A stretch of 60,449 nucleotides of DNA from Oscillospiraceae bacterium (GTDB lineage: Bacteria; Bacillota; Clostridia; HGM11514): NCBI GenBank assembly GCA_015068925.1, contig SVJP01000002.1:1-60449 (forward strand), given 5' to 3'. Below are positions 85-57,919 of this stretch, piece by piece. The notes below the pieces were generated by a model. The model was given only the letters and a program-made list of their open reading frames with translations, had not been told where the DNA came from and ran no database searches. How positions within the stretch are numbered: the stretch's first letter is position 1; each line of letters opens with the position of its first letter. Position numbers and translations under genes: made by a program.

Positions 85-1962
85 TTACTGTTTGGAAATA
101 GCGTTAAATTTACACTTGCTCATACAAACGCCGCACTTAATACATTTATCCGTATCAATGGTATAAGGATTCTTGATTTCACCGGAAATAGCATCCACAG
201 GACAATTTCTTGCACACAGGCTACAACCCTTACATTTTTCAGGATCAATGGTGTAGGACAACAATGCTTTACAGATACCTGCAGGACATTTTTTGTCTAC
301 AACGTGAGCAACATATTCATCCCTGAAATACCGCAGAGTGCTGAGTACGGGGTTAGGTGCTGTCTGACCCAGACCGCACATTGCAGAAGTCTTAATAGCA
401 TAAGCCAATTCTTCCAGTTTGTCCAAATCTTCCAAAGTACCTTTTCCCTGGGTAATCTTTTCCAGAATTTCGTACATTCTCTTGGTACCGATACGGCAAG
501 GAGTACACTTACCGCAGGATTCATCTACAGTAAATTCTAAGAAGAATTTTGCGATGTCAACCATACAGTTGTCTTCGTCCATAACAATCAGACCACCGCT
601 GCCCATCATAGAGCCGATGTTAATCAGAGAATCGTAATCGATCGGAGTATCAATCAAGGATGCAGGAATACATCCACCGGAAGGACCACCGGTCTGTGCC
701 GCCTTAAACTTCTTACCACCGGGGATACCGCCACCGATTTCTTCAACGATTTCACGCATGGTAGTTCCCATAGGAATTTCAACCAAACCGGTATTATGAA
801 TCTTACCGCCCAGAGCAAATACCTTGGTACCTTTACTCTTTTCGGTACCCATAGAGGTATACCATTCAGGACCGTTTAAGATAATCTGACAAATATTTGC
901 ATAGGTTTCTACATTATTCAGCAGAGTGGGTTTTTCCCACAGACCCTTTACAGCAGGGAACGGAGGACGGGGACGGGGTTCACCACGATGTCCTTCAATA
1001 GAGGTCATAAGTGCTGTTTCTTCACCACAAACAAATGCACCAGCACCCAGACGAATTCCCAGATGGAAGGAAAAGTCTGTTCCCATAATATTATCACCCA
1101 GAACACCGTATTCTTCTGCCTGAGCAATTGCAATTTTTAGTCTGTTAACAGCAATGGGGTATTCTGCACGGATATAAATATAACCTTCGTCAGAACCAAT
1201 TGCATAAGCCGCAATTGCCATTGCTTCGATAACACTGTGAGGATCGCCTTCCAGCACGCTTCTGTCCATAAATGCACCGGGGTCACCTTCGTCAGCATTA
1301 CAACATACATATTTTTTGTCATTCACAGAATTTGCAGCAAATTGCCACTTCATTCCTGTGGGGAAACCGGCACCGCCACGACCTCTCAAGCCGGAATCTT
1401 TGATGACATCAATAACCTGCTGAGGTTCATATTCCTTCAATACCTTTTCCAGCGCCTTATAACCGTCCATTGCTATGTATTCATCAATACATTCAGGATC
1501 GATAGCACCACAGTTACGCAATGCGATTCTGTTCTGCTTTGCATAGAAAGGAACCTGATTCAGAGGCTTTACAGAGCCGTCCTCCAAAACGGTTTCTTCA
1601 TAAAGCAATTCTTTTACCGGTTCTCCTTGACCGATATGCTGAGCAACAATTTTTTCGATGTCTTCAACATTCACACGGCTGTAGAAAGAACCGGAAGGGT
1701 ATACAACCACAATGGGACCCAGAGCACACAGACCAAAGCAACCGGTCAAAACAACAGATACGCCCTGTTCTAAATTTTGCTTTTTCAATTCTTCTTCGAA
1801 TTTCTGTTTAATGTCCAAAGAACCGGAGGACTGACAGCCTGTACCGCCGCAGACCAGAATGTGCGCTTTCACATCATCCGGCTTTTTGGTTTTATCCTGC
1901 CGCAATGCAATTTCAGCATATTTTTTCGCGCGAATCGCATCAATTTCAGCTATGCTTTTCAT
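85..1962 (-). CDS. hydB: NuoF-like flavoprotein subunit of a bifurcating [FeFe]-hydrogenase (FMN/NADH-binding, with an N-terminal thioredoxin-like 2Fe-2S domain and C-terminal 2x[4Fe-4S])
   Basis: 625-aa ORF. It carries GLRGRGGAGFPTG and CNADEGDPGAF motifs of the NADH dehydrogenase 51-kDa family. The C-terminus has CKGCSLCARNCP and CIKCGVCMSKC ferredoxin motifs. Confidence 0.9.
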   Translation of the reverse strand: MKSIAEIDAIRAKKYAEIALRQDKTKKPDDVKAHILVCGGTGCQSSGSLDIKQKFEEELKKQNLEQGVSVVLTGCFGLCALGPIVVVYPSGSFYSRVNVEDIEKIVAQHIGQGEPVKELLYEETVLEDGSVKPLNQVPFYAKQNRIALRNCGAIDPECIDEYIAMDGYKALEKVLKEYEPQQVIDVIKDSGLRGRGGAGFPTGMKWQFAANSVNDKKYVCCNADEGDPGAFMDRSVLEGDPHSVIEAMAIAAYAIGSDEGYIYIRAEYPIAVNRLKIAIAQAEEYGVLGDNIMGTDFSFHLGIRLGAGAFVCGEETALMTSIEGHRGEPRPRPPFPAVKGLWEKPTLLNNVETYANICQIILNGPEWYTSMGTEKSKGTKVFALGGKIHNTGLVEIPMGTTMREIVEEIGGGIPGGKKFKAAQTGGPSGGCIPASLIDTPIDYDSLINIGSMMGSGGLIVMDEDNCMVDIAKFFLEFTVDESCGKCTPCRIGTKRMYEILEKITQGKGTLEDLDKLEELAYAIKTSAMCGLGQTAPNPVLSTLRYFRDEYVAHVVDKKCPAGICKALLSYTIDPEKCKGCSLCARNCPVDAISGEIKNPYTIDTDKCIKCGVCMSKCKFNAISKQ

Positions 1963-1980
1963 TGGAAAATCCCTCCCCTA

Positions 1981-2472
1981 TTACACATACTTTTTCATAA
2001 TATCGTCAACATCATGCTTTGTCAGTCTGCCGTATACTTCGTCATTGACAGTCAGCACAGGCGCCAGACCGCAAGCACCGATACATCTGGTTGCTTCCAG
2101 AGAATACTTTGCATCGGAAGTACACTGACCAACATCGATGCCCAGCTTATTCTTAAATTCTTCCAGAATATCACCGGAACCCTTTACATAGCAGGCAGTT
2201 CCCAAACAAATTGCAATATGATACTGACCCTTTGGTTCCAGCTTAAACTGGGTATAAAAGGTTACAATACCATACACTTCAGACAAAGGTATCCCTAAGC
2301 CGTCAGCAATCATAGTCTGCACTTCAATCGGCAGATAACCGTAAATTTCCTGCGCTTCGTGCAAAACAGGAATCAAGGCGCCTTTTTCATCCTTGTGGCT
2401 TTGAATTACCGCCTTCAGCTGCTCCTCCTGCTGAGGAGTTCCCTGAAACGGAATCGTCTTTTTTTCGCTCAT
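1981..2472 (-). CDS. hydC: NuoE-like [2Fe-2S] subunit of a bifurcating hydrogenase
   Basis: The ORF is 1981..2511. The likely start is the ATG at 2470..2472 (MSEKKTIPFQ), with AGGAG 10 nt upstream. The CLGTACYVKG...CIGACGLAP cysteine pattern matches the NuoE/24-kDa family. Confidence 0.85.
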   Translation of the reverse strand: MSEKKTIPFQGTPQQEEQLKAVIQSHKDEKGALIPVLHEAQEIYGYLPIEVQTMIADGLGIPLSEVYGIVTFYTQFKLEPKGQYHIAICLGTACYVKGSGDILEEFKNKLGIDVGQCTSDAKYSLEATRCIGACGLAPVLTVNDEVYGRLTKHDVDDIMKKYV

Positions 2473-9792: not shown

Positions 9793-9808
9793 TTGTCTTT
9801 TAAAAATT

Positions 9809-10168
9809 GTGAGCAAGCCTATAAGCCGAGTTCTGTATTTGACAGTCATCTATCTAGGCTGTACATTTCTGCACAGCTCAAGCCACGTCACGGAATCAAA
9901 TACGCCGGGCAAGCGCGCATCAAATGATGCCTTCCGTATCAGTGTTGCACCAGGTGGGGTTTACATGGCCGGACGGTCTCCCGCCCGCCGGTGAGCTCTT
10001 ACCTCGCCTTTCCATCCTTGCTTGCAATCAATTGCGTCAGCGGTTTATTTCTGTTGCACTTTCCTTAGAGTCGCCTCCACCGGGAGTTACCCGGCACCCT
10101 GCCCTATGGAGCTCGGACTTTCCTCATTCGCGCCTTACGGCACGCCCGCGACTGTCTGGCTTACTCAC
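9809..10168 (-). ncRNA. rnpB: RNase P RNA, bacterial type A
   Basis: The minus strand carries the universal P4 strands GAGGAAAGTCCGAGCTC and ACAGAACTCGGCTTATAG. It also has GGTAAGAGCTCACC and an 11-bp P1 (GTGAGTAAGCC/GGCTTGCTCAC). Length is about 360 nt. Confidence 0.9.
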
Positions 10169-37879: not shown

Positions 37880-38522
37880 TTAATAGGGTTGCCCCATGCT
37901 TTTCAAAAAATGCAAGGAAAGAATTAGGCAATTGAGAGCCTGATACCGCAAACAAATTCGGACGGATTTTTGATACACAGCCTCCGATGAACCCATGGTC
38001 AAAGCCCGGTAATAAAATCTCCTCGGGGGAAAGATACAGACAATCAAAACCGCCGCTTTCTGCCGCTTTTGCAATGCTTTTGTCCGAAGTAATCAAAGCA
38101 TTTTCGCTCACTCCCACCACCGAACAGGCAGCATACCCTTGAGAAACGTTGCAGATAGAAACATTTCTCTTTTCAAGCTCTTCCCTGATTCTTCCGTCCA
38201 GAGCTTTTTCCAGACAAAAAGCAGTATTTCCTACCTTCGCTACATTATATGCAATCCTCGACGGGTAGTGCCCGTCCGATTGGGTTTTTCCCGAAAGAAC
38301 CGTAACATCCGTCTCCTTTAAGCATGCTTGATAATATTCATAAAGGTCAGGTGTCACAATCACCGTTTTTTCATCCGGTGCAAAGCATTGCAAATCCGCA
38401 TGATATCGCTCGGGAAGAGGAAAATTTTTCTGTTCTTTTGTAAAAATCGGTTGACACTCCTCACTCTCCAACAATGCCAAAAACGGTTTTGGAGCAAGAG
38501 GGGAAATGATCACATACTTCAT
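37824..38522 (-). CDS. Hypothetical protein (conserved Clostridia-type, function unknown)
   Basis: The ORF extends to 38546. The likely start is MKYVIISP at 38522, 5 nt after GGAGG. I recognised no confident domain. See the findings for a speculative pentein-like motif. Confidence 0.6.
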   Translation of the reverse strand: MKYVIISPLAPKPFLALLESEECQPIFTKEQKNFPLPERYHADLQCFAPDEKTVIVTPDLYEYYQACLKETDVTVLSGKTQSDGHYPSRIAYNVAKVGNTAFCLEKALDGRIREELEKRNVSICNVSQGYAACSVVGVSENALITSDKSIAKAAESGGFDCLYLSPEEILLPGFDHGFIGGCVSKIRPNLFAVSGSQLPNSFLAFFEKHGATLLSVSGQLYDFGGSISPEGK

Positions 38523-38531
38523 AATATCCTC

Positions 38532-38557
38532 CAAAAAGGGCACCAAAAAGGTGCCCT
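38532..38557 (-). terminator. Intrinsic terminator of the 1371-aa LRR gene
   Basis: On the minus strand: AGGGCACC-TTTTT-GGTGCCCT followed by TTTTTGG. It starts 9 nt after the stop codon. Confidence 0.8.
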
Positions 38558-38565
38558 AAGCGTGT

Positions 38566-41500
38566 TTATTCTACCGCGAAGGTATCAGCCTCGGTCAAAG
38601 GCATCATATCTTGCCAAAGGAAGGTTTTTATCACATCGCCCGATTGGATTGTACAAGAAAGAGCAATGTCTACCCCTGTATCATTTTGTGCCTCTATGGT
38701 TGCTTTTTTCATTCCGGTTCCTTTTAGCTTGCCCTCTTTGTCATAAACAGAAGAATAAATGATGCAAGCCACATCCTCGCCCGTATGATTTCCTGCAACA
38801 GAATTGACAATCCATTTTCCGTCTACCTGACTGTAATTCAAAATTTTGCTATAATAGTCTGCCTCTCCGCTTAAACTGGTAATATAGGCATAGCCGTCGT
38901 TGTTTCCCAATGAAATTTCCGTTTGGTCACAGCTTGCCGTTACGTACAGCTGTTTGGTATTTTCCAGGAAAAGCATATCCTTTCGTTCAACGGTAAAAGA
39001 AACCTGCTCTGTCTGTCCTGCAGACAAATGCAACACCCTTTCTTCCAATACCTGTTGTCCGTCCTTTAATTGAACGGTAACATCAGAAGCGGTCTGATAG
39101 CCTATGTTGGAAATATCCGCTGTAATCACAGAATCGTTGGCAGAAACATGTTCTACTGCCACGTCCGCATTCCCTACAAACAAGGAAACTTGGTTGTTTT
39201 TGGTATCATATTCTTCGCCCTCTTGTTGAGAAACTGTTACTTTGATGTTCTGCGGGGTAAAGTTGGAGGGCTTTTTATACACAATGGTAAACTCTGCTGA
39301 TTGTCCGGGAAGAAGAGGTTCGGTTATTTTCTGCTCGGTATTTCCTTCAATTTTTACCGTATAGGCATTCACCGTCAATTCACCGCTGTTTTTCACCGAG
39401 CCGTACACGGTCATGGTTTCCTCATCTACCGTCACATCAGAAAGAGCCAAATCATAAGAAGGAATCACAGAAATCATGTATAAATCCGTCTTTGTAATTT
39501 CGCCGTCTTTGACAATTCCGTTGTTAAAGACCACATCCATAGAGCCGTTTTCATTCAGTAAGCCGGAAGGGTATTTTGCCTGATTTTCAAGCTCCGTTAC
39601 CTGAATTTCGTCACTCCAAACACCGTCCTGCAATAAACAGGTGTAAATTTCGGTGCCCTTCTCTACCGTCTTTTCCCACCAGATAGCAGTATCTCCCTGA
39701 TTGTTGCTGTCCATAACAAATCGGTCATGAAGTCCCGGTTTTGCCTCTGAGAATACAGATTGCAGCTTAGAACCGTCAGCAGCACAAGATTGAATATTCC
39801 CTTCGCTGTAATAATAAAGCAAATTATTTTCAAAAACAGGATTGCTGTCTAACACCTCATTATTCGTCAATTGCCTTTCGGAAAAACCGGAAATTAAGCG
39901 GATATCACGGTCATCCACCGTTCCCAAATCATTGTCGTCATCTGTCACATAAGCAACCGTAAACTGACCGTCCAAAATACCTGCATTTAAGTTTGTAACC
40001 GCAGTTAAATCTGATTTGATTGCTTTGGGAGTTGTCCATGCACTTCCGTTAAAATCAGCCTGCATCAAAGTGTTTTCGCCTGTTACTCCCATAATGTCGC
40101 TTTCGCTGTTAACAGACCACACCGCACTTGCTCCCGTCTTGGTGGCACAAATAACGGGTTGGGTGTCAAGCACCGTGTTATTGGTCAAAGTTTTGGGAGC
40201 ATCAAAGCCGTTGCCGTTCCATTTTGCAACGCAGATTTCTCCCAATGCCCCGATTTTCTCTAAGGTCATGGTGTCAGATAATTTACTTGTTTCGTTTTGC
40301 CAAACCAGATAACCGTCACGGAAACAGGGATAAAAGTCTGCCGTTCCGTCATCATCCACCGCTTTTACCTCAGACCATTGTTTGGTGGAATCATTGTACA
40401 CGGAATACACAAGCATGGTTCTGTCAATGTCGGCTCGTTTCGGGTTATCCCATTGGAGCACCATCACCTTTTTTCCCTCAATTTCACAAATTTGAGGTGC
40501 CGCCTCCGTGTAAATATTATCTGCAATTTTTGCAAGATTTTTGTTGGTATATTCTGCCGCACCGTATCCTTGAATGGGATAGGTGGTAAGCCATAAAGTG
40601 GGTTGTTCTAAATAGTCACGGCTTTCGTTTTCATACACCTTTTCGCTGTCAATAGAGCTCATGAGGCTGTGCTGTTCTATGGATTGCAAAGAAATAGCAT
40701 CATCCTTAATCAACCCCTTGTTACTTCCTGTTTCGTAAATGAGAAAATCTCCCTGGGCGATTTTCTTCTGAGCTACCGTTTTGCCGAATACCTTTACTTT
40801 AAAGCTTGCTTCTCCTTCTCCCCATGCTTTCAGATAATCCTTTCCGATTCCAGATTTAATATTGAGACTTCCTTCTCCGCTTGCCCCTAAGGTTGCTACC
40901 TTAGCAACACCAATTCCGCCTCCTATTTCCGCCATGATTTTTGCCGTTAAATAGGCTTCAAATTCAGGAGTAAAGGTTTCGGGATTAATATTAATCATTT
41001 TTCCTTCCAATTCTGCACCAACACCACCGCCAAATTCATAATAGCAAGGAACAACCCAAATAAACACCTGTCCCTGATAGGTATATTTGAACTCTGCATT
41101 AAAGGTTAAGCACCCTTCGGAAAATCTCCAACCGGAATCTGTTTTTATCATTTCGGCATATCCGGAAACATCTAAAGAGGTATCCATTCCCTTTGAAACA
41201 TTAAACTTTACTTTTTCCGCTTTAAAATTCGGATATTTTGCCTTCATTCGTTGATTGATTGTTTTATTATGCTTTGCACCCTGATATTCCTGCAATGATT
41301 TCTTTGAAGATTCTTTGATTTCTGCTTTCCAGTCAGCAAAGGAAAATCCTTTGAACCGACCGGTGGTTTTATCAATATTACTGTCGCTGATACCAAACGC
41401 AATATTAATCTTGTTGTCATGTTCATACTCAAATGTGACAGGAATAAAATCCATATCAAAACCAAATTCCTTGTTTTCAAAAATCGGAACACCGTCAGGA

Positions 41501-42681
41501 ATTGTAAAACTGAATTTCTTGCCTAATTTGAAAGACAGATTCTTTTCATCAGGAAACAAATCGCCGTCCGCAAAAGAAGAAATTTTCAACTTGGTCTTTT
41601 TCGCAGTGGATTTTCCTGTTTTGCTGTCCGTTGCAAGCAAATAAATTGTATCGCTAGCGTCAAAAATCTTTCCCGGTTGTACTTTTGTGGTACCATTTAC
41701 CGTTAGCTCTTTTACCTTTCCTCTTCCTTGTGTCAGGTACAATTTTACATTTTCGTTTCCGTTGAAATCTACTTCTGCCTTAATACTGACTTCAACATTG
41801 CTATCCTTTGCAATGGTAATTGCCTTGGAAAACAAATCATAATTGCTGCCGTCATGGGTAATGGTGGCTGAGGTGATAATGGGGGCATCATCAGAGGTGG
41901 AATTGGTGCTTCCTTGTGTGCCTGTAATGGCAAAATGAATGGTTGCATTTTTTAAACCGCTATTGTAATCACCAATTGAAATCTGTTCCCACTGACTTTT
42001 GGAACCGGTATAATACACATCGGTTAAGCTGTTACAACGAGAAAACGCAAAAGCCCCAATGGTTGTTACACTGTTGGGGATGGTAATGCTTGTTAAGCTG
42101 TAACAAGCATCAAACGCATAATCCCCAATGCTTGTCACACTGTTGGGGATGGTAATGCTTGTTAAGCTGGAACAATAATAAAACGCATATTCCCCAATGC
42201 TTGTCACACTGTTGGGAATGGTGATGTTCGTTAAGCTGTTACAAGAATAAAACGCATATTCCCCAATGCTTGTCACACTGTTGGGGATGGTAATACTTGT
42301 TAAGCTGTCACAATCAAAAAACGCCCGCTCCCCAATACTTGTCACACTGTTGGGGATGGTAATGCTTGTTAATCTGTCACAATCACCAAACGCACTATAC
42401 CCAATGGTTGTCACACTGTTGGGAATGGTGATGTTCGTTAAGCTGTCACAACGATAAAACGCATATTCCCCAATGGTTGTCACCGGATAACCGCCCAAAG
42501 TTGACGGAATGGTAATAGCACCGCTTGCAGAAGTGTTACAATCTGTAATGGTTGCTTGTCCTCCGGAAACAGTATAAGTATAAATCCCTTCTTTGTAGTA
42601 TGCTACACCATGAACCACGGTTACGGGGAGCATGGCAAAGACCAACACCATACAAAGTAGTAAACTCACTGATTTTTTCAT
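38566..42681 (-). CDS. Giant secreted protein: signal peptide, seven 23-aa BspA-type LRRs, large uncharacterised Gly-rich beta region, propeller-like repeats, CARDB-like domains
   Basis: 1371 aa. The signal peptide ends VVHG. ITIPNSVTSIGEYAFxxCxSLTS recurs 7 times (aa about 56-221). CARDB-like segments include VYGSVKNSGELTVNAYTV and ADISNIGYQTASDVTV. I saw no LPXTG, SLH or choline-binding anchor. Confidence 0.8.
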   Translation of the reverse strand: MKKSVSLLLCMVLVFAMLPVTVVHGVAYYKEGIYTYTVSGGQATITDCNTSASGAITIPSTLGGYPVTTIGEYAFYRCDSLTNITIPNSVTTIGYSAFGDCDRLTSITIPNSVTSIGERAFFDCDSLTSITIPNSVTSIGEYAFYSCNSLTNITIPNSVTSIGEYAFYYCSSLTSITIPNSVTSIGDYAFDACYSLTSITIPNSVTTIGAFAFSRCNSLTDVYYTGSKSQWEQISIGDYNSGLKNATIHFAITGTQGSTNSTSDDAPIITSATITHDGSNYDLFSKAITIAKDSNVEVSIKAEVDFNGNENVKLYLTQGRGKVKELTVNGTTKVQPGKIFDASDTIYLLATDSKTGKSTAKKTKLKISSFADGDLFPDEKNLSFKLGKKFSFTIPDGVPIFENKEFGFDMDFIPVTFEYEHDNKINIAFGISDSNIDKTTGRFKGFSFADWKAEIKESSKKSLQEYQGAKHNKTINQRMKAKYPNFKAEKVKFNVSKGMDTSLDVSGYAEMIKTDSGWRFSEGCLTFNAEFKYTYQGQVFIWVVPCYYEFGGGVGAELEGKMININPETFTPEFEAYLTAKIMAEIGGGIGVAKVATLGASGEGSLNIKSGIGKDYLKAWGEGEASFKVKVFGKTVAQKKIAQGDFLIYETGSNKGLIKDDAISLQSIEQHSLMSSIDSEKVYENESRDYLEQPTLWLTTYPIQGYGAAEYTNKNLAKIADNIYTEAAPQICEIEGKKVMVLQWDNPKRADIDRTMLVYSVYNDSTKQWSEVKAVDDDGTADFYPCFRDGYLVWQNETSKLSDTMTLEKIGALGEICVAKWNGNGFDAPKTLTNNTVLDTQPVICATKTGASAVWSVNSESDIMGVTGENTLMQADFNGSAWTTPKAIKSDLTAVTNLNAGILDGQFTVAYVTDDDNDLGTVDDRDIRLISGFSERQLTNNEVLDSNPVFENNLLYYYSEGNIQSCAADGSKLQSVFSEAKPGLHDRFVMDSNNQGDTAIWWEKTVEKGTEIYTCLLQDGVWSDEIQVTELENQAKYPSGLLNENGSMDVVFNNGIVKDGEITKTDLYMISVIPSYDLALSDVTVDEETMTVYGSVKNSGELTVNAYTVKIEGNTEQKITEPLLPGQSAEFTIVYKKPSNFTPQNIKVTVSQQEGEEYDTKNNQVSLFVGNADVAVEHVSANDSVITADISNIGYQTASDVTVQLKDGQQVLEERVLHLSAGQTEQVSFTVERKDMLFLENTKQLYVTASCDQTEISLGNNDGYAYITSLSGEADYYSKILNYSQVDGKWIVNSVAGNHTGEDVACIIYSSVYDKEGKLKGTGMKKATIEAQNDTGVDIALSCTIQSGDVIKTFLWQDMMPLTEADTFAVE
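42019..42516. repeat. Tandem 69-bp coding repeats (LRR array) in the 1371-aa gene
   Basis: GTCACACTGTTGGGGATGGTAATGCTTGTTAAGCT-type units recur every 69 nt on the plus strand. Confidence 0.85.
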
Positions 42682-42695
42682 AAAAATTCCTCCTC

Positions 42696-42851
42696 AAAAT
42701 AAAAAATGCGCCAGTCGGAACTGACGCATGAAAAACGCAAGCTCCGGCTTTCTGTTGCGACACAGCTCACACCAATACAGGGATATGACAAGCTAAGCAT
42801 ACGTTTTTACCACGTACACCCTGTATGGGAATAATATTAAGCTATGTCGCA
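42696..42851 (-). promoter_or_regulatory. Structured 5' leader RNA with intrinsic terminator, copy A (candidate riboswitch or attenuator)
   Basis: On the minus strand: P1 is GCGACATAGCT (42840..42850) / AGCTGTGTCGC (42757..42767). P2 is ATACAGGG/CCCTGTAT. An inner hairpin TACGT..ACGTA surrounds GGTAAAAACG. GCGTTTTTCATGCG is conserved. The terminator ATGCGTCAG-TTCCGA-CTGGCGCAT (42706..42729) is followed by T6. Copy A is homologous to 56417..56578. Confidence 0.65.
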
Positions 42852-42856
42852 CTTCT

Positions 42857-42885
42857 ATTGTACCATAGTTTGGAAGATTTGTAAA
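42857..42885 (-). promoter_or_regulatory. Sigma-A promoter of the LRR gene, copy A
   Basis: On the minus strand: TTTACA, a 17-nt spacer, then TGgTACAAT, preceded by an A-tract. The architecture and flanks are identical to 56382..56410. Confidence 0.65.
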
Positions 42886-42955
42886 CAATTTTTTTCGCCG
42901 CTGAAACGGTTTTAAATTCCTCTATCCTTGCATACATTACAAAGAGGTGAAAGGC

Positions 42956-43963
42956 ATGAAAAAGGCATATTTAGGATTGGTGTTACTGGTTATTTCCGCA
43001 ATCGGGGTCTTCTTTTGGTATCAAAAAGCGGATCGGGCGGTGGCAAGCGATACCATTAACTGGGTGGATTTTACCGTGACGGCAGAGGCGATGCAATGCG
43101 CCGCTGACTGGGAAATCAAGCACCGTGAGTTGGACTGGATTGCGTTACTTTCTCGGGCGGCAGTGCTTTACGGAGGAGATTTCAAAAAATATGAACAGGA
43201 GGATTTGGATGAGATTGCTCAAAAAGCCTTGGAAGGAACCGCCCCGAGAGACCAGACGGGAAAGGAACTGACCAAATATTATGATTACTATTACGAAGCC
43301 TATTCTGCGGTACTTGGGGAATTTTTGGGAGAGTACACCGTAAACGGAGAAGAACATTTTGGCATCAAAGCCTTTTGCCCCATTGCCAAGGGATACGATT
43401 TTTCCCACTACGACGATTTCGGAACAGGCAGAAATTACGGCTTTGACCGAAAACATTTAGGCCATGACCTGTTGGGCAGCATCGGCACTCCCATTGTGGC
43501 GGTGGAAAGCGGTGTGGTAGAAGCATTGGGCTGGAATCAATACGGCGGATGGCGAGTCGGCATCCGAAGCTTTGACCAAAAGCGATATTATTATTACGCC
43601 CACATGAGAAAAAATCATCCCTATCATTATCAGTTAAAAGAAGGAGATGTTGTGGTGGCAGGAGAGGTGATAGGCTATCTCGGCATGACAGGATACAGCA
43701 CCAAGGAAAACGTGAATAACATTAACGTCCCCCATCTTCATTGGGGAATGCAGCTGATTTTTGACGAATCACAAAAAGATGCCATCAGTGAAATCTGGAT
43801 TGACTGTTATCAGATTACAAAATTTTTAAAGCAAAACCGTTCGAACGTATATCAGGACCCTGCATCTTTGGACTATTTTCCCTCCGACCCTTTTTATGAA
43901 CAAAACTTAGAAGGAAAGGAACTGAAAAACAAAAAAGAGGTTTTGATTATCAACGATAAATAG
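42956..43963 (+). CDS. M23-family metallopeptidase (peptidoglycan endopeptidase-like)
   Basis: The ORF starts at the GTG at 42947. The ATG at 42956 lies 6 nt after GAGGTG. It has an N-terminal TM, HLGHDL, and the C-terminal motif PHLHWGM. Confidence 0.85.
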   Translation: MKKAYLGLVLLVISAIGVFFWYQKADRAVASDTINWVDFTVTAEAMQCAADWEIKHRELDWIALLSRAAVLYGGDFKKYEQEDLDEIAQKALEGTAPRDQTGKELTKYYDYYYEAYSAVLGEFLGEYTVNGEEHFGIKAFCPIAKGYDFSHYDDFGTGRNYGFDRKHLGHDLLGSIGTPIVAVESGVVEALGWNQYGGWRVGIRSFDQKRYYYYAHMRKNHPYHYQLKEGDVVVAGEVIGYLGMTGYSTKENVNNINVPHLHWGMQLIFDESQKDAISEIWIDCYQITKFLKQNRSNVYQDPASLDYFPSDPFYEQNLEGKELKNKKEVLIINDK

Positions 43964-56039: not shown

Positions 56040-56195
56040 TTACGAAATATCCGACTGATTTTTTGTCTGTTGCTCCTTTTGTTCAAAATAAGCACATTGT
56101 TCTTTCATACTTAACGTATTGACCATAATTTGTTCTAAATTGCATTTTCCGTTGACCTGATGAATACAGTTGCTGACGCAGTTGATGTTTGTCAT
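56040..56195 (-). CDS. Small Cys-rich protein (51 aa), not in the ORF track
   Basis: The reverse complement reads MTNINCVSNCIHQVNGKCNLEQIMVNTLSMKEQCAYFEQKEQQTKNQSDIS*. The ATG at 56193..56195 lies 5 nt after GGGAGGG. The ORF is below the 60-aa cutoff of the supplied track. Confidence 0.55.
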   Translation of the reverse strand: MTNINCVSNCIHQVNGKCNLEQIMVNTLSMKEQCAYFEQKEQQTKNQSDIS

Positions 56196-56381: not shown

Positions 56382-56410
56382 TTTACAAATCCTGTAAAGT
56401 ATGGTACAAT
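56382..56410 (+). promoter_or_regulatory. Sigma-A promoter of the LRR operon, copy B
   Basis: TTTACA (56382..56387), a 17-nt spacer, then TGgTACAAT (-10 at 56405..56410), preceded by AAAAAATTG. It matches copy A at 42857..42885. Confidence 0.65.
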
Positions 56411-56416
56411 AAAGTT

Positions 56417-56578
56417 GCGACATAGTTTGAATATTTAGATTTATAAAAGTTTGCGGTTTGGTAAAAACGCACGCTTTACTTTGTCATACCTTTTATAAAT
56501 CTAAAATGGAATGAACTATGTCGCAGTAGTAGGTCAAAGCTGCGTTTTTCATGCGCAGCACTCGCTGCGCATTTTTTA
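56417..56578 (+). promoter_or_regulatory. Structured 5' leader RNA with intrinsic terminator, copy B (candidate riboswitch or attenuator)
   Basis: P1 is 56417..56427 / 56514..56524 (11 bp). P2 is 56434..56449 / 56490..56505 (16 bp). An inner hairpin TGCG..CGCA surrounds GGTAAAAACG. TTGTCATA and GCGTTTTTCATGCG are conserved. The terminator ATGCGCAGC-ACTC-GCTGCGCAT (56551..56572) is followed by T6. Confidence 0.65.
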
Positions 56579-56656
56579 TTTCACAAAAAGGAGGGTCAGG
56601 GAAATTTTCCATAAAAATGCCGGCAGAAAACAAATAACAGAAAGAAGGAAATTAAA

Positions 56657-57919
56657 TTGAAAAAATTAAGTTGTATGTTGCTTTGTCTGGTGCTTAGTGT
56701 CACCATGCTTTCAACCGTAGCAATCACCGCAGGAGCAGAAGAATTTACCGAAGGAATTTATACCTATACCGTAGAAAACGGAGAAGCAACCATTATCAAA
56801 TGTGACGAATCAGTAAGTGGTGAACTTGTCATTCCCTCAACCTTGGGTGGATATCCGGTGACTACCATTGGCAATTATGCATTTTCTAATTGTTCAAGTT
56901 TAACAAGCATTACCATCCCTGACAGTGTTACTACCATTTTCGCTTTTGCATTTCTCGGTTGTTCAAGTTTGACAAGCATCACTATCCCTGACAGCGTGAC
57001 AAGCATTGGGGCTTATTCATTTCCCAATTGTTCAAGTTTGACAAGCATCACCATCCCTGACAGTGTTACTTACATTGGCGAACATGCATTTCACGGTTGT
57101 TCAAGTTTGACAAGCATCACCATCCCTGACAGTGTTACTTACATTGGTGCTGGCGCATTTCAAAATACGGCTTATTATAACGATTCAAGCAATTGGGAAA
57201 ACGAGCTTTTATATATTGGAAATCATCTGATTGAGGCAAAAAAAATGATTACATCTGCAACATTAAAAAATGGAACTAAAACCATAGCAGCCTTTGCATT
57301 TTACAATTGTTCAAGTTTGACAAACATCATCATCCCTGACAGCGTGACAAGCATTGGGGGTTATTCATTTTCTGATTGTTCAAGTTTAACAAGCATTACC
57401 ATCCCTGACAGTGTGACAAGCATTGGAGAGTATATGTTTTTTAATTGTCAGAATTTGAAAGATATCTATTTTGCAGGTTCACAAGAACAATGGGAAAACG
57501 CTGTCGGTCAAGCGAATCTTGAGTTAAATGAAAATGCAACAATTCATTTTAACAGCACCGGAAATCATACACCTGAAATTTCCGTCCTGGTGAACAATCA
57601 AGCAATTTCCTTTGACCAACCGCCTGTGATTGAAAATGACAGAACTTTGGTTCCCCTTCGTGCCATCTTCGAAGCACTGGGGGCAGAAGTGCTGTGGGAT
57701 GGAGAAACCTCCACCGTCACCGCAACACGGGGAGATATTACCATTTCTCTCCAGATCGGAAGCAATCAGCTTTATAAAAACGGGGAAGCCATCACCATTG
57801 ATGTTCCTGCTCAAATTATCAATGACAGAACCATGGTGCCCGTCAGAGCCATTGCAGAAAGCTTTAACTGCCGAGTTGGTTGGGACAGTGACACAAAAAC
57901 CGTTACCATCACCGAATAA
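56657..57919 (+). CDS. Secreted BspA-type LRR protein with a C-terminal copper-amine-oxidase-N-like (stalk) domain
   Basis: 420 aa with a TTG start after AGAAGGA. The signal peptide ends ITAGA. There are 23-aa LRRs (CSSLTSITIPDSVT.IG..AF). The C-terminus has two DRTLVPLRAI/DRTMVPVRAI half-repeats of the Cu_amine_oxidN1 type. Confidence 0.8.
   Translation: MKKLSCMLLCLVLSVTMLSTVAITAGAEEFTEGIYTYTVENGEATIIKCDESVSGELVIPSTLGGYPVTTIGNYAFSNCSSLTSITIPDSVTTIFAFAFLGCSSLTSITIPDSVTSIGAYSFPNCSSLTSITIPDSVTYIGEHAFHGCSSLTSITIPDSVTYIGAGAFQNTAYYNDSSNWENELLYIGNHLIEAKKMITSATLKNGTKTIAAFAFYNCSSLTNIIIPDSVTSIGGYSFSDCSSLTSITIPDSVTSIGEYMFFNCQNLKDIYFAGSQEQWENAVGQANLELNENATIHFNSTGNHTPEISVLVNNQAISFDQPPVIENDRTLVPLRAIFEALGAEVLWDGETSTVTATRGDITISLQIGSNQLYKNGEAITIDVPAQIINDRTMVPVRAIAESFNCRVGWDSDTKTVTITE
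56825..57460. repeat. 69-bp coding LRR repeats, including a perfect 51-nt duplicate
   Basis: 57028..57078 is identical to 57097..57147 (offset 69 nt). Related units lie on both sides. Confidence 0.85.

Follow-up and report, generated by a model that had tools for sequence, protein, structure and literature searches.

In the terminator/antiterminator riboswitches of Clostridia, such as the cyclic di-GMP (c-di-GMP) classes I and II, a conserved structured domain of the leader precedes an intrinsic terminator that competes with an antiterminator; several copies occur per genome, their targets are a mixture of secreted and surface proteins, and in Clostridia they adjoin surface-protein genes. The PyrR-controlled pyr attenuators of Bacillus use three tiers of mutually exclusive helices, in which sequestering the 5′ strand of the antiterminator allows termination, trp-type attenuators (1:2, 2:3, 3:4) let successive overlapping helices decide whether the terminator forms, and T-box leaders place a long irregular 5′ hairpin of ~100 nt ahead of the antiterminator and terminator. 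These features recur in a leader RNA found twice in a 60,449-nt stretch of DNA from an Oscillospiraceae bacterium (contig SVJP01000002.1 of assembly GCA_015068925.1, positions 1 to 60,449; hereafter the window), where copy A, on the minus strand, precedes the gene for a 1371-aa secreted protein with leucine-rich repeats (LRR), and copy B lies on the plus strand. Unlike the c-di-GMP riboswitches, this leader has no aptamer match in Rfam, its promoter is part of the module, the RNA starts at its first helix P1, and an extra tier (pairing of segments X and Y against helix P3) and a hairpin mimicking P1 are present. Compared with the PyrR attenuators, it has no Rfam match to the PyrR-binding loop and a gene context other than pyrimidine metabolism, and its anti-antiterminator strand is held in a fourth helix, P3. 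It differs from the trp-type attenuators in that no conserved leader-peptide open reading frame (ORF) or ribosome-binding site (RBS) was seen in the aligned leaders, which were inspected by eye with no systematic ORF scan, and from the T-box leaders in having no Rfam match, no T-box sequence and targets that are not aminoacyl-tRNA or amino-acid genes. As in the riboswitch-derived small RNAs SreA and EutX/Rli55, the terminated leader could accumulate and act in trans, at which its tandem units hint, although there is no evidence of a trans target for this leader. The element is probably a cis-acting transcription attenuator, forming one module with its own strong sigma-A-type promoter, that stops transcription by default and is turned on by a putative effector. 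Its type of mechanism is already known; the RNA family, the four-tier design and the target set appear to be new.

The features of copy A were read from the window sequence, together with a terminator scan and promoter-match scoring (all coordinates are window positions). The promoter, structured leader, intrinsic terminator, RBS and ATG were all found where an earlier note on this DNA had placed them, as follows, in the order of transcription.

42857-42885, minus strand: promoter, with −35 box TTTACA at 42885-42880, a 17-nt spacer, TG at 42865-42864 and −10 box TACAAT at 42862-42857
42840-42850, minus strand: 5′ strand of P1, GCGACAUAGCU, partner at 42767-42757 (computed fold)
42819-42829, minus strand: 5′ strand of P2, CCCAUACAGGG, partner CCCUGUAUUGG at 42782-42772 (computed fold)
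42798-42818, minus strand: P3 hairpin with the conserved loop (U)GGUAAAA(A) (computed fold and family covariation)
42789-42808, minus strand: segment X, AAAAACGUAUGCUUAGCUUG, whose partner is the P3 5′ arm or Y
42783-42790, minus strand: conserved UGUCAUAU, left unpaired in the 3′ bulge that separates P3 from P2, partly fixed by the search pattern
42757-42767, minus strand: 3′ strand of P1, AGCUGUGUCGC, in which CUGU at 42765-42762 has an alternative partner, ACAG at 42755-42752
42752-42755, minus strand: P1 mimic ACAG, which repeats the P1 5′ strand and gives the hairpin CUGU-GUCGCA-ACAG (P1alt)
42731-42751, minus strand: segment Y, AAAGCCGGAGCUUGCGUUUUU, pairing with X (anti-antiterminator) or, through 42745-42736, with 42726-42717 (antiterminator)
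42696-42729, minus strand: intrinsic terminator, with stem 42729-42720/42715-42706, loop UCCG and then a T-tract (terminator scan)
42689-42695, minus strand: RBS GAGGAGG of the 1371-aa gene, abutting the T-tract, with the ATG at 42681

The promoter scores 10/12 with its TG and is the top promoter match within 38300-43100, and transcription is predicted to start at G42850 or no more than 1 nt away, giving a leader of ~150 nt. Segment X takes in the 3′ half of the P3 loop as well as the P3 3′ arm and the beginning of the 3′ bulge, and its duplex with Y amounts to −18.2 kcal/mol. The bulge UGUCAUAU is complementary to the junction GAUGUGA, with which it could form a further helix, P2alt. The terminator hairpin (42729-42706) reads ATGCGTCAGT-TCCG-ACTGGCGCAT followed by TTTTTATTTT as DNA, and AUGCGUCAGU-UCCG-ACUGGCGCAU followed by UUUUUAUUUU as RNA.

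A scan of one genome per species from 185,579 species with the pattern GGTAAAAACG-N6-20-TGTCATA-N35-65-CGTTTTT, which holds 24 fixed bases and by our own estimate would give ~2 chance matches in 596 Gb, returned 74 loci, far above the chance level. Seventy-three of them align over the full element, and the other, L035 from Prevotella, was set aside as a chance match. Distinct metagenome-assembled genomes of gut Clostridia, from animals or humans, supply all 73 members, which represent about 70 uncultured species under labels that include Eubacteriales, Oscillospiraceae, Acutalibacteraceae, Candidatus Coproplasma and Faecousia. A covariance model (R1) derived from these 73 sequences gives them scores of 83-170 bits and detects exactly two copies in the window and no third, at 116 and 100 bits, which places the window copies among the more divergent members. 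Searches with the covariance model and BLAST added more divergent members outside the pattern, two in L059 and one each in L021, L158, L159 and L155. The very divergent unit of L155 lies upstream of an LRR lipoprotein gene and was the sole match, a weak one, among 80 metagenome loci picked solely for encoding LRR homologues. Three tandem promoter-leader-terminator units stand upstream of one gene in L059; they are of different subtypes (1484-2140, minus strand), the gene encodes a small secreted protein, and the same RBS-ATG stub (ATTGAGGAGATATGGCAAAACAT) follows each of the three. L021 also carries a SAM-I riboswitch (1566-1652, minus strand, 64.7 bits) in the same locus as its two leader units.

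Pairing percentages and compensatory changes were counted over the 73 scan members and promoter geometry over 71. AAAAACG, CGUUUUU and UGUCAUA were fixed by the scan pattern, and their invariance in the resulting alignment (A2) is no evidence. The −10 box ends exactly 6 nt upstream of the first G of P1 in 64 of the 71 members, with TG before the −10 box in 61 and a 17-nt spacer in 60; this fixed distance indicates that the RNA begins with P1 and that the promoter belongs to the module. P1 (11 bp) is 98% paired, with compensatory change at 5 pairs, and is joined to P2 by an internal loop in which UUUAAUAUU lies opposite (GAU)GUG. P2 is hypervariable yet always complementary, its native strands giving −13.2 kcal/mol as against −3.7 kcal/mol with the partner strand of another member. 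A 3′ bulge of 13-15 nt, UUUGCUUGUCAUAU, separates it from P3, a G-U-rich helix of 8 bp that is 90.5% paired with 3 compensatory pairs and is closed by the loop UUUGGUAAAAA. After P1 come, in order, the P1 mimic, segment Y and the terminator. The mimic is a 4-nt repeat of the P1 5′ strand, which most members carry as ACAG, and its hairpin with the P1 3′ strand (P1alt) is 98% paired with compensatory change in 4/4 pairs and is also retained in divergent members. The terminator is 98% paired with 5 compensatory pairs, X:Y is 93% paired, and the antiterminator, formed by Y and the terminator 5′ arm (Y:T5′), is 92.5% paired with 4 compensatory pairs, some of them to terminator-loop bases. Since those loop bases are otherwise unconstrained, their covariation with Y supports the antiterminator. 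Compensatory change has thus preserved P1, P2, P3 and the terminator of the leader that the earlier note had called structured. The parts it named are right, but it overlooked the X:Y anti-antiterminator, the antiterminator and the P1-mimic hairpin. Its argument for control of transcription rather than translation is supported by the fixed −10-to-P1 distance and by a covarying antiterminator that covers the 5′ arm and loop of the terminator.

These helices form a chain of mutually exclusive pairings, all of which covary: P3 excludes X:Y, X:Y excludes the antiterminator, and the antiterminator excludes the terminator. Segment X, made up of the five A's of the P3 loop, the P3 3′ arm in full and the adjoining part of the bulge, pairs with Y as a 15-19-bp duplex in every sequence variant, and the antiterminator is GAAACUGCG:CGUAGUUUC in most members and GGAGCUUGCG:CGUCAGUUCC in copy A. 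Native duplexes were consistently stronger than shuffled ones, at −15.0 versus −3.2 kcal/mol for P1, −13.2 versus −3.2 for P2, −10.1 versus −3.8 for P3, −17.2 versus −6.7 for X:Y, −14.1 versus −8.0 for the antiterminator and −16.9 versus −5.5 for the terminator, and segment pairs that were not proposed as partners gave energies no better than shuffled. The energies also form a ladder, in which the P3 hairpin (averaging −10.7 kcal/mol) is weaker than X:Y (−17.2 kcal/mol) in 97% of the members and the antiterminator (−13.2 kcal/mol) is weaker than the terminator (−16.2 kcal/mol) in 89%. Because some bases of X and Y were fixed by the pattern, members outside it are informative: pairing is kept by compensatory change in L059-1 (AAAAAGUG:CACUUUUU) and in L158 (AAAAGUGCA:UGCAUUUUU), and L155 uses entirely different sequences for both X:Y (GUAUCUC:GGAGAUAC) and the antiterminator (GGAGAUAC:GUGUCUUC). 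In two divergent members the segments were assigned by eye. Compensated pairing in these members answers the concern over pattern-fixed bases.

Some further pairings were examined. Among possible tertiary pairings between the P3 loop (L3), J1/2, J2/1 and J3/2, only J3/2:J2/1 exceeded the shuffled level; this is P2alt (UCAUAUC with GAUGUGA), at −6.1 versus −2.7 kcal/mol, for which A2 contains no covariation. Together, P1alt and P2alt indicate the retention of a complete alternative structure for the 3′ two-thirds of the RNA. An antiterminator made instead from the 5′ arms of P3 and of the terminator was rejected, its energy lying at the shuffled level (−5.6 versus −4.6 kcal/mol).

The leader has the attributes of an intrinsic-terminator attenuator, namely a position between promoter and ORF, a GC-rich hairpin with a U-tract and a conserved antiterminator. 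The sequences show the promoter, the helices with their mutual exclusivity and covariation, and the linkage to genes, whereas the direction of the switch and the effector are inferred. In the proposed mechanism, the RNA would start at P1 and fold into the long irregular hairpin P1-P2-P3. Segment X, that is the P3 3′ arm with its flanks, could then choose as its partner the P3 5′ arm or the linker segment Y; Y could choose between X and the terminator's 5′ arm plus loop, and the terminator 5′ arm between Y and its own 3′ arm. On the one hand, with P3 closed, Y would be free to form the antiterminator, and polymerase would read on into the gene, which has its RBS 0-30 nt beyond the T-tract. On the other hand, capture of X by Y would let the terminator form, and a ~150-nt RNA would be released. 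Y would leave the polymerase ahead of the terminator arm and find single-stranded toeholds in the P3 loop and the bulge. Since the later helices are more stable than those they displace and Y is made before the terminator arm, termination would be the default, and a putative effector, whether a small ligand or a protein, might bind the region of the P3 loop and 3′ bulge, holding P3 closed or hiding the toeholds and so turning the gene on.

Several observations weigh against this proposal. As nested folds, P1-P2-P3 reaches −40.5 kcal/mol and the much less stable X:Y fold only −27.0 kcal/mol, so that X:Y must either form as a pseudoknot with P1 and P2 intact or form while the 5′ third of the RNA is occupied; by a rough length estimate, tethers of 5 nt and 8 nt could span such a pseudoknot. 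L155, the most distant member, has not kept the loop and junction sequences, which makes a conserved ligand pocket less likely. Such heterogeneous target genes are unusual for a metabolite riboswitch, and across the 73 8-kb loci no conserved regulator gene was found near the units. Tandem units with their own promoters (three in L059, two in L044) and units with no ORF behind them would fit a free-standing small RNA.

The same helices could also work with the opposite polarity, read-through being the default and an effector freeing the terminator by stabilising either a three-way junction of X:Y, P2alt and P1alt or the X:Y pseudoknot. Such an OFF switch would agree with a 5′ hairpin, P1-P2-P3, that is very stable and transcribed first, and with alternative helices that are all confined to the 3′ two-thirds of the RNA and would together build a compact junction of an often ligand-binding type, in which X:Y and P1alt covary and P2alt is complementary. 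The minimum-free-energy folds of L059-1 and L021-2, moreover, already contain the antiterminator. We nevertheless regard this polarity as unlikely: the nested alternative fold is ~13 kcal/mol less stable, a gap too big for ligand binding alone, and X:Y exceeds P3 and the antiterminator alike in stability, making termination the likelier ground state.

Linkage to a gene bears on whether the leader acts in cis at all. An ORF with an RBS starts 14-45 nt past the T-tract in 59 of 72 members, and the other 13 units have no ORF within 45 nt. The latter, together with the tandem units and with a fixed promoter-RNA junction of the kind typical of small-RNA genes, could suggest a free-standing small-RNA gene acting in trans as a sponge or decoy, with read-through incidental or secondary; promoter and terminator are both present, and the primary sequence is highly conserved, terminator stem included. 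This reading, which may coexist with a cis role, is nonetheless quite improbable as the main account, since the 59 closely spaced starts leave no space for a second promoter, the RBS of copy A abuts the T-tract, and a covarying antiterminator would be purposeless in a plain small-RNA gene; several of the gaps hold insertion sequence (IS)-type transposase genes, suggesting secondary insertions. In L044, the two tandem units (685-1074, minus strand), each with its own promoter, are followed only by a truncated IS200-like transposase ORF and no intact gene.

Similarity of layout (a long 5′ hairpin, then antiterminator and terminator) and an association with surface-protein genes that recalls the c-di-GMP riboswitches in Clostridia could also suggest that the leader has diverged within a known family, for example the T-boxes, the c-di-GMP riboswitches, the PyrR sites or some other leader in Rfam. 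The searches make this very improbable. At gathering thresholds of Rfam 15, the only match in the window was RNase P, and none fell on the leader in the window or in 15 typical loci. At E <= 10, the two window copies matched only unrelated models (plant microRNA precursors, a Burkholderia small RNA and RAGATH-33), all far below threshold, and gave no match to the T-box model RF00230 or to the GEMM-I and c-di-GMP-II aptamer models on either copy. The antiterminator loop is UUUUUCGGUG, without a T-box sequence. The RNase P match is a full-length bacterial class A RNA (9806-10167, minus strand, 278 bits). Two other ideas taken from known leaders were dropped. T-box-like pairing of UGGU with a tRNA 3′ end is unsupported, the GG being missing in L059-3 and L155, and a candidate leader peptide (AUG-UUG-GUA-AAA-ACG-UAG) occurs in some members, is not conserved and lacks an RBS. 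No description of this RNA was found in full-text literature searches, and the leader strings were absent from the first 200 of the 408 supplementary files of Fremin and Bhatt 2021 (PMC8040213).

Copy B has the same organisation as copy A, and its features, again in the order of transcription, are as follows.

56382-56410, plus strand: promoter, with TTTACA at 56382-56387, a 17-nt spacer, TG at 56402-56403 and TACAAT at 56405-56410
56417-56578, plus strand: leader (covariance model, 100.5 bits; computed fold)
56417-56427/56514-56524, plus strand: P1
56434-56449/56490-56505, plus strand: P2
56452-56471, plus strand: P3
56463-56483, plus strand: segment X
56526-56529, plus strand: P1 mimic GUAG
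56530-56549, plus strand: segment Y
56539-56544 with 56554-56559, plus strand: antiterminator, GCUGCG:CGCAGC
56551-56572, plus strand: terminator, followed by a T-tract
56657-57919, plus strand: controlled gene, whose 420-aa secreted product carries LRR_5 and copper amine oxidase N-terminal-like domains

Promoter and leader together span 56382-56578 (plus strand), and the TTG start at 56657 lies 79 nt past the T-tract, close to the ~78 nt given by the earlier note. The alignment of the two copies runs from the A-tract/−35 box to the T-tract, so the conserved element does stop at the terminator, as had been proposed, with identities of 81% in the promoter and 69% in the leader. Both copies fold into the same long hairpin and terminator (z = −4.2 and −6.3 against shuffles), in agreement with the shared fold that had been expected. 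In the spacer of copy B (56588-56640, plus strand), an RBS-like AAGGAGGG occupies the place of the RBS in copy A, without a correctly spaced start codon, and the 79 nt also hold a 6-codon mini-ORF (ATG CCG GCA GAA AAC AAA TAA); the spacer appears to combine a remnant of the ancestral start region with an insertion. On the other side of copy B, between uppS and its promoter and divergent from the latter, lies a gene for a 51-aa Cys-rich product (~56040-56195, minus strand), which is called in public assemblies (L075/L076).

The gene of copy B is a paralogue of that of copy A over its first ~270 residues, and the first 300 nt of the two coding sequences are 62-69% identical, about the level of the leaders (69%). 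This would be expected if the similarity of the window copies were a mere remnant of gene duplication and the leader had no function. The earlier note had taken similarity that includes coding sequence as a sign of a simple recent duplication; coding sequence is indeed included, in the form of homologous BspA-type LRR N-termini, but the duplication is old and not recent. Judging from the sequences, the window copies represent an old duplication of the whole unit. As the coding starts are as similar as the leaders, the window pair alone cannot prove constraint on the leader, and the case rests on the wider family. There, a functionless remnant has a negligible chance of being the explanation. 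P2 is wholly different between the copies and complementary in both (copy A, CCAUACAGGG/CCCUGUAUUGG; copy B, UUUAGAUUUAUAAAAG/CUUUUAUAAAUCUAAA), the leader stands before unrelated genes in about 70 other species and is missing at 79 of the 80 LRR-homologue loci, and the covariation across the family already refutes it.

The absence of the leader from 79 of those 80 loci also led us to reject it as a general feature of LRR_5 genes; the leader appears specific to a clade, not to LRR genes. Its presence upstream of unrelated genes in other species likewise marks it, as far as sequence can tell, as an independent module. Pfam domains were sought in 61 downstream proteins, most of which had no match. 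LRR_5 repeats were found in 11, zinc-ribbon domains in 3, helix-turn-helix (HTH) domains in 2, GIY-YIG in 2, and AMP-binding, PPDK_N, Mrr and others in one each. By our reading of the sequences, many of the downstream proteins start with lipoprotein-type signal peptides. Among the 73 8-kb loci, 27 encode an LRR-type protein family at some position and 8 encode a serine recombinase. The tRNA genes detected in leader loci (L009 3791-3863, L011 840-911, L012 4631-4720 and L021 1782-1865) lie ~0.1-0.5 kb from the unit in L009, L012 and L021. Some units may sit in integrated islands, and the targets give the impression of variable surface and accessory genes, partly located in islands. No matches were found in IMG/VR viral contigs or in plasmids. 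L158 (MT835845.1) and L159 (MT837627.1) are human-faecal contigs labelled 'UNVERIFIED: Bacteriophage sp.' in GenBank. Besides its leader unit, L158 carries ClpB-like, ComEC/MBL-like and YicC-like bacterial genes and looks like bacterial DNA within a virome data set. A phage or plasmid origin of the element was rejected on the blank IMG/VR and plasmid searches and the ordinary bacterial genes of L158.

The neighbourhood of copy A comprises the following features.

38566-42681, minus strand: controlled gene, whose 1371-aa secreted product has BspA-type LRR_5 repeats at its N-terminus and also a CARDB domain
38533-38556, minus strand: gene-end hairpin GGGCACC-UUUUU-GGUGCCC with a T-tract, read from the sequence and not listed by the terminator scan

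The earlier note had described copy A with its gene as a self-contained unit. A gene-end terminator is present, but the next ATG on the same strand, at 38521, lies only 12 nt past the gene-end T-tract, so that the unit is not fully insulated. The gene starting there (minus strand, MKYVIISPLAPK...) has its RBS and ATG close behind the terminator and no obvious promoter; it may depend on terminator read-through, and hence indirectly on the leader. Upstream of copy A, the divergent gene at 42947-43963 (plus strand) encodes a protein that appears M23-type peptidase-like by eye, and its true start is probably an ATG near 42956 with the RBS AGAGGTG rather than the listed GTG.

The heterogeneity of the targets fits a global signal better than a single metabolite. 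More tentatively than for the attenuator itself, and with less than even confidence, we suggest that the family could be a new riboswitch class or a protein-dependent antitermination regulon, which would respond to some global signal, for instance a second messenger or a cue of gut or host origin, and through its four-tier chain turn on a whole set of genes for adhesin-like LRR proteins, lipoproteins and accessory functions; its ~150-nt RNAs might in addition act in trans. The origin of all 73 scan members in metagenome assemblies may explain why surveys of isolate genomes overlooked the family. It would constitute a well-supported orphan riboregulator candidate, with an unusually complete set of covarying alternative helices that can be tested directly by mutation. 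BspA-type LRR proteins are adhesins in other bacteria. If the proposal is true, a large group of uncultured gut Clostridia would control much of its variable surface proteome, including BspA-type LRR proteins and many lipoproteins of unassigned function, by one RNA switch, and this switch would offer a handle on when gut Clostridia change their surface.

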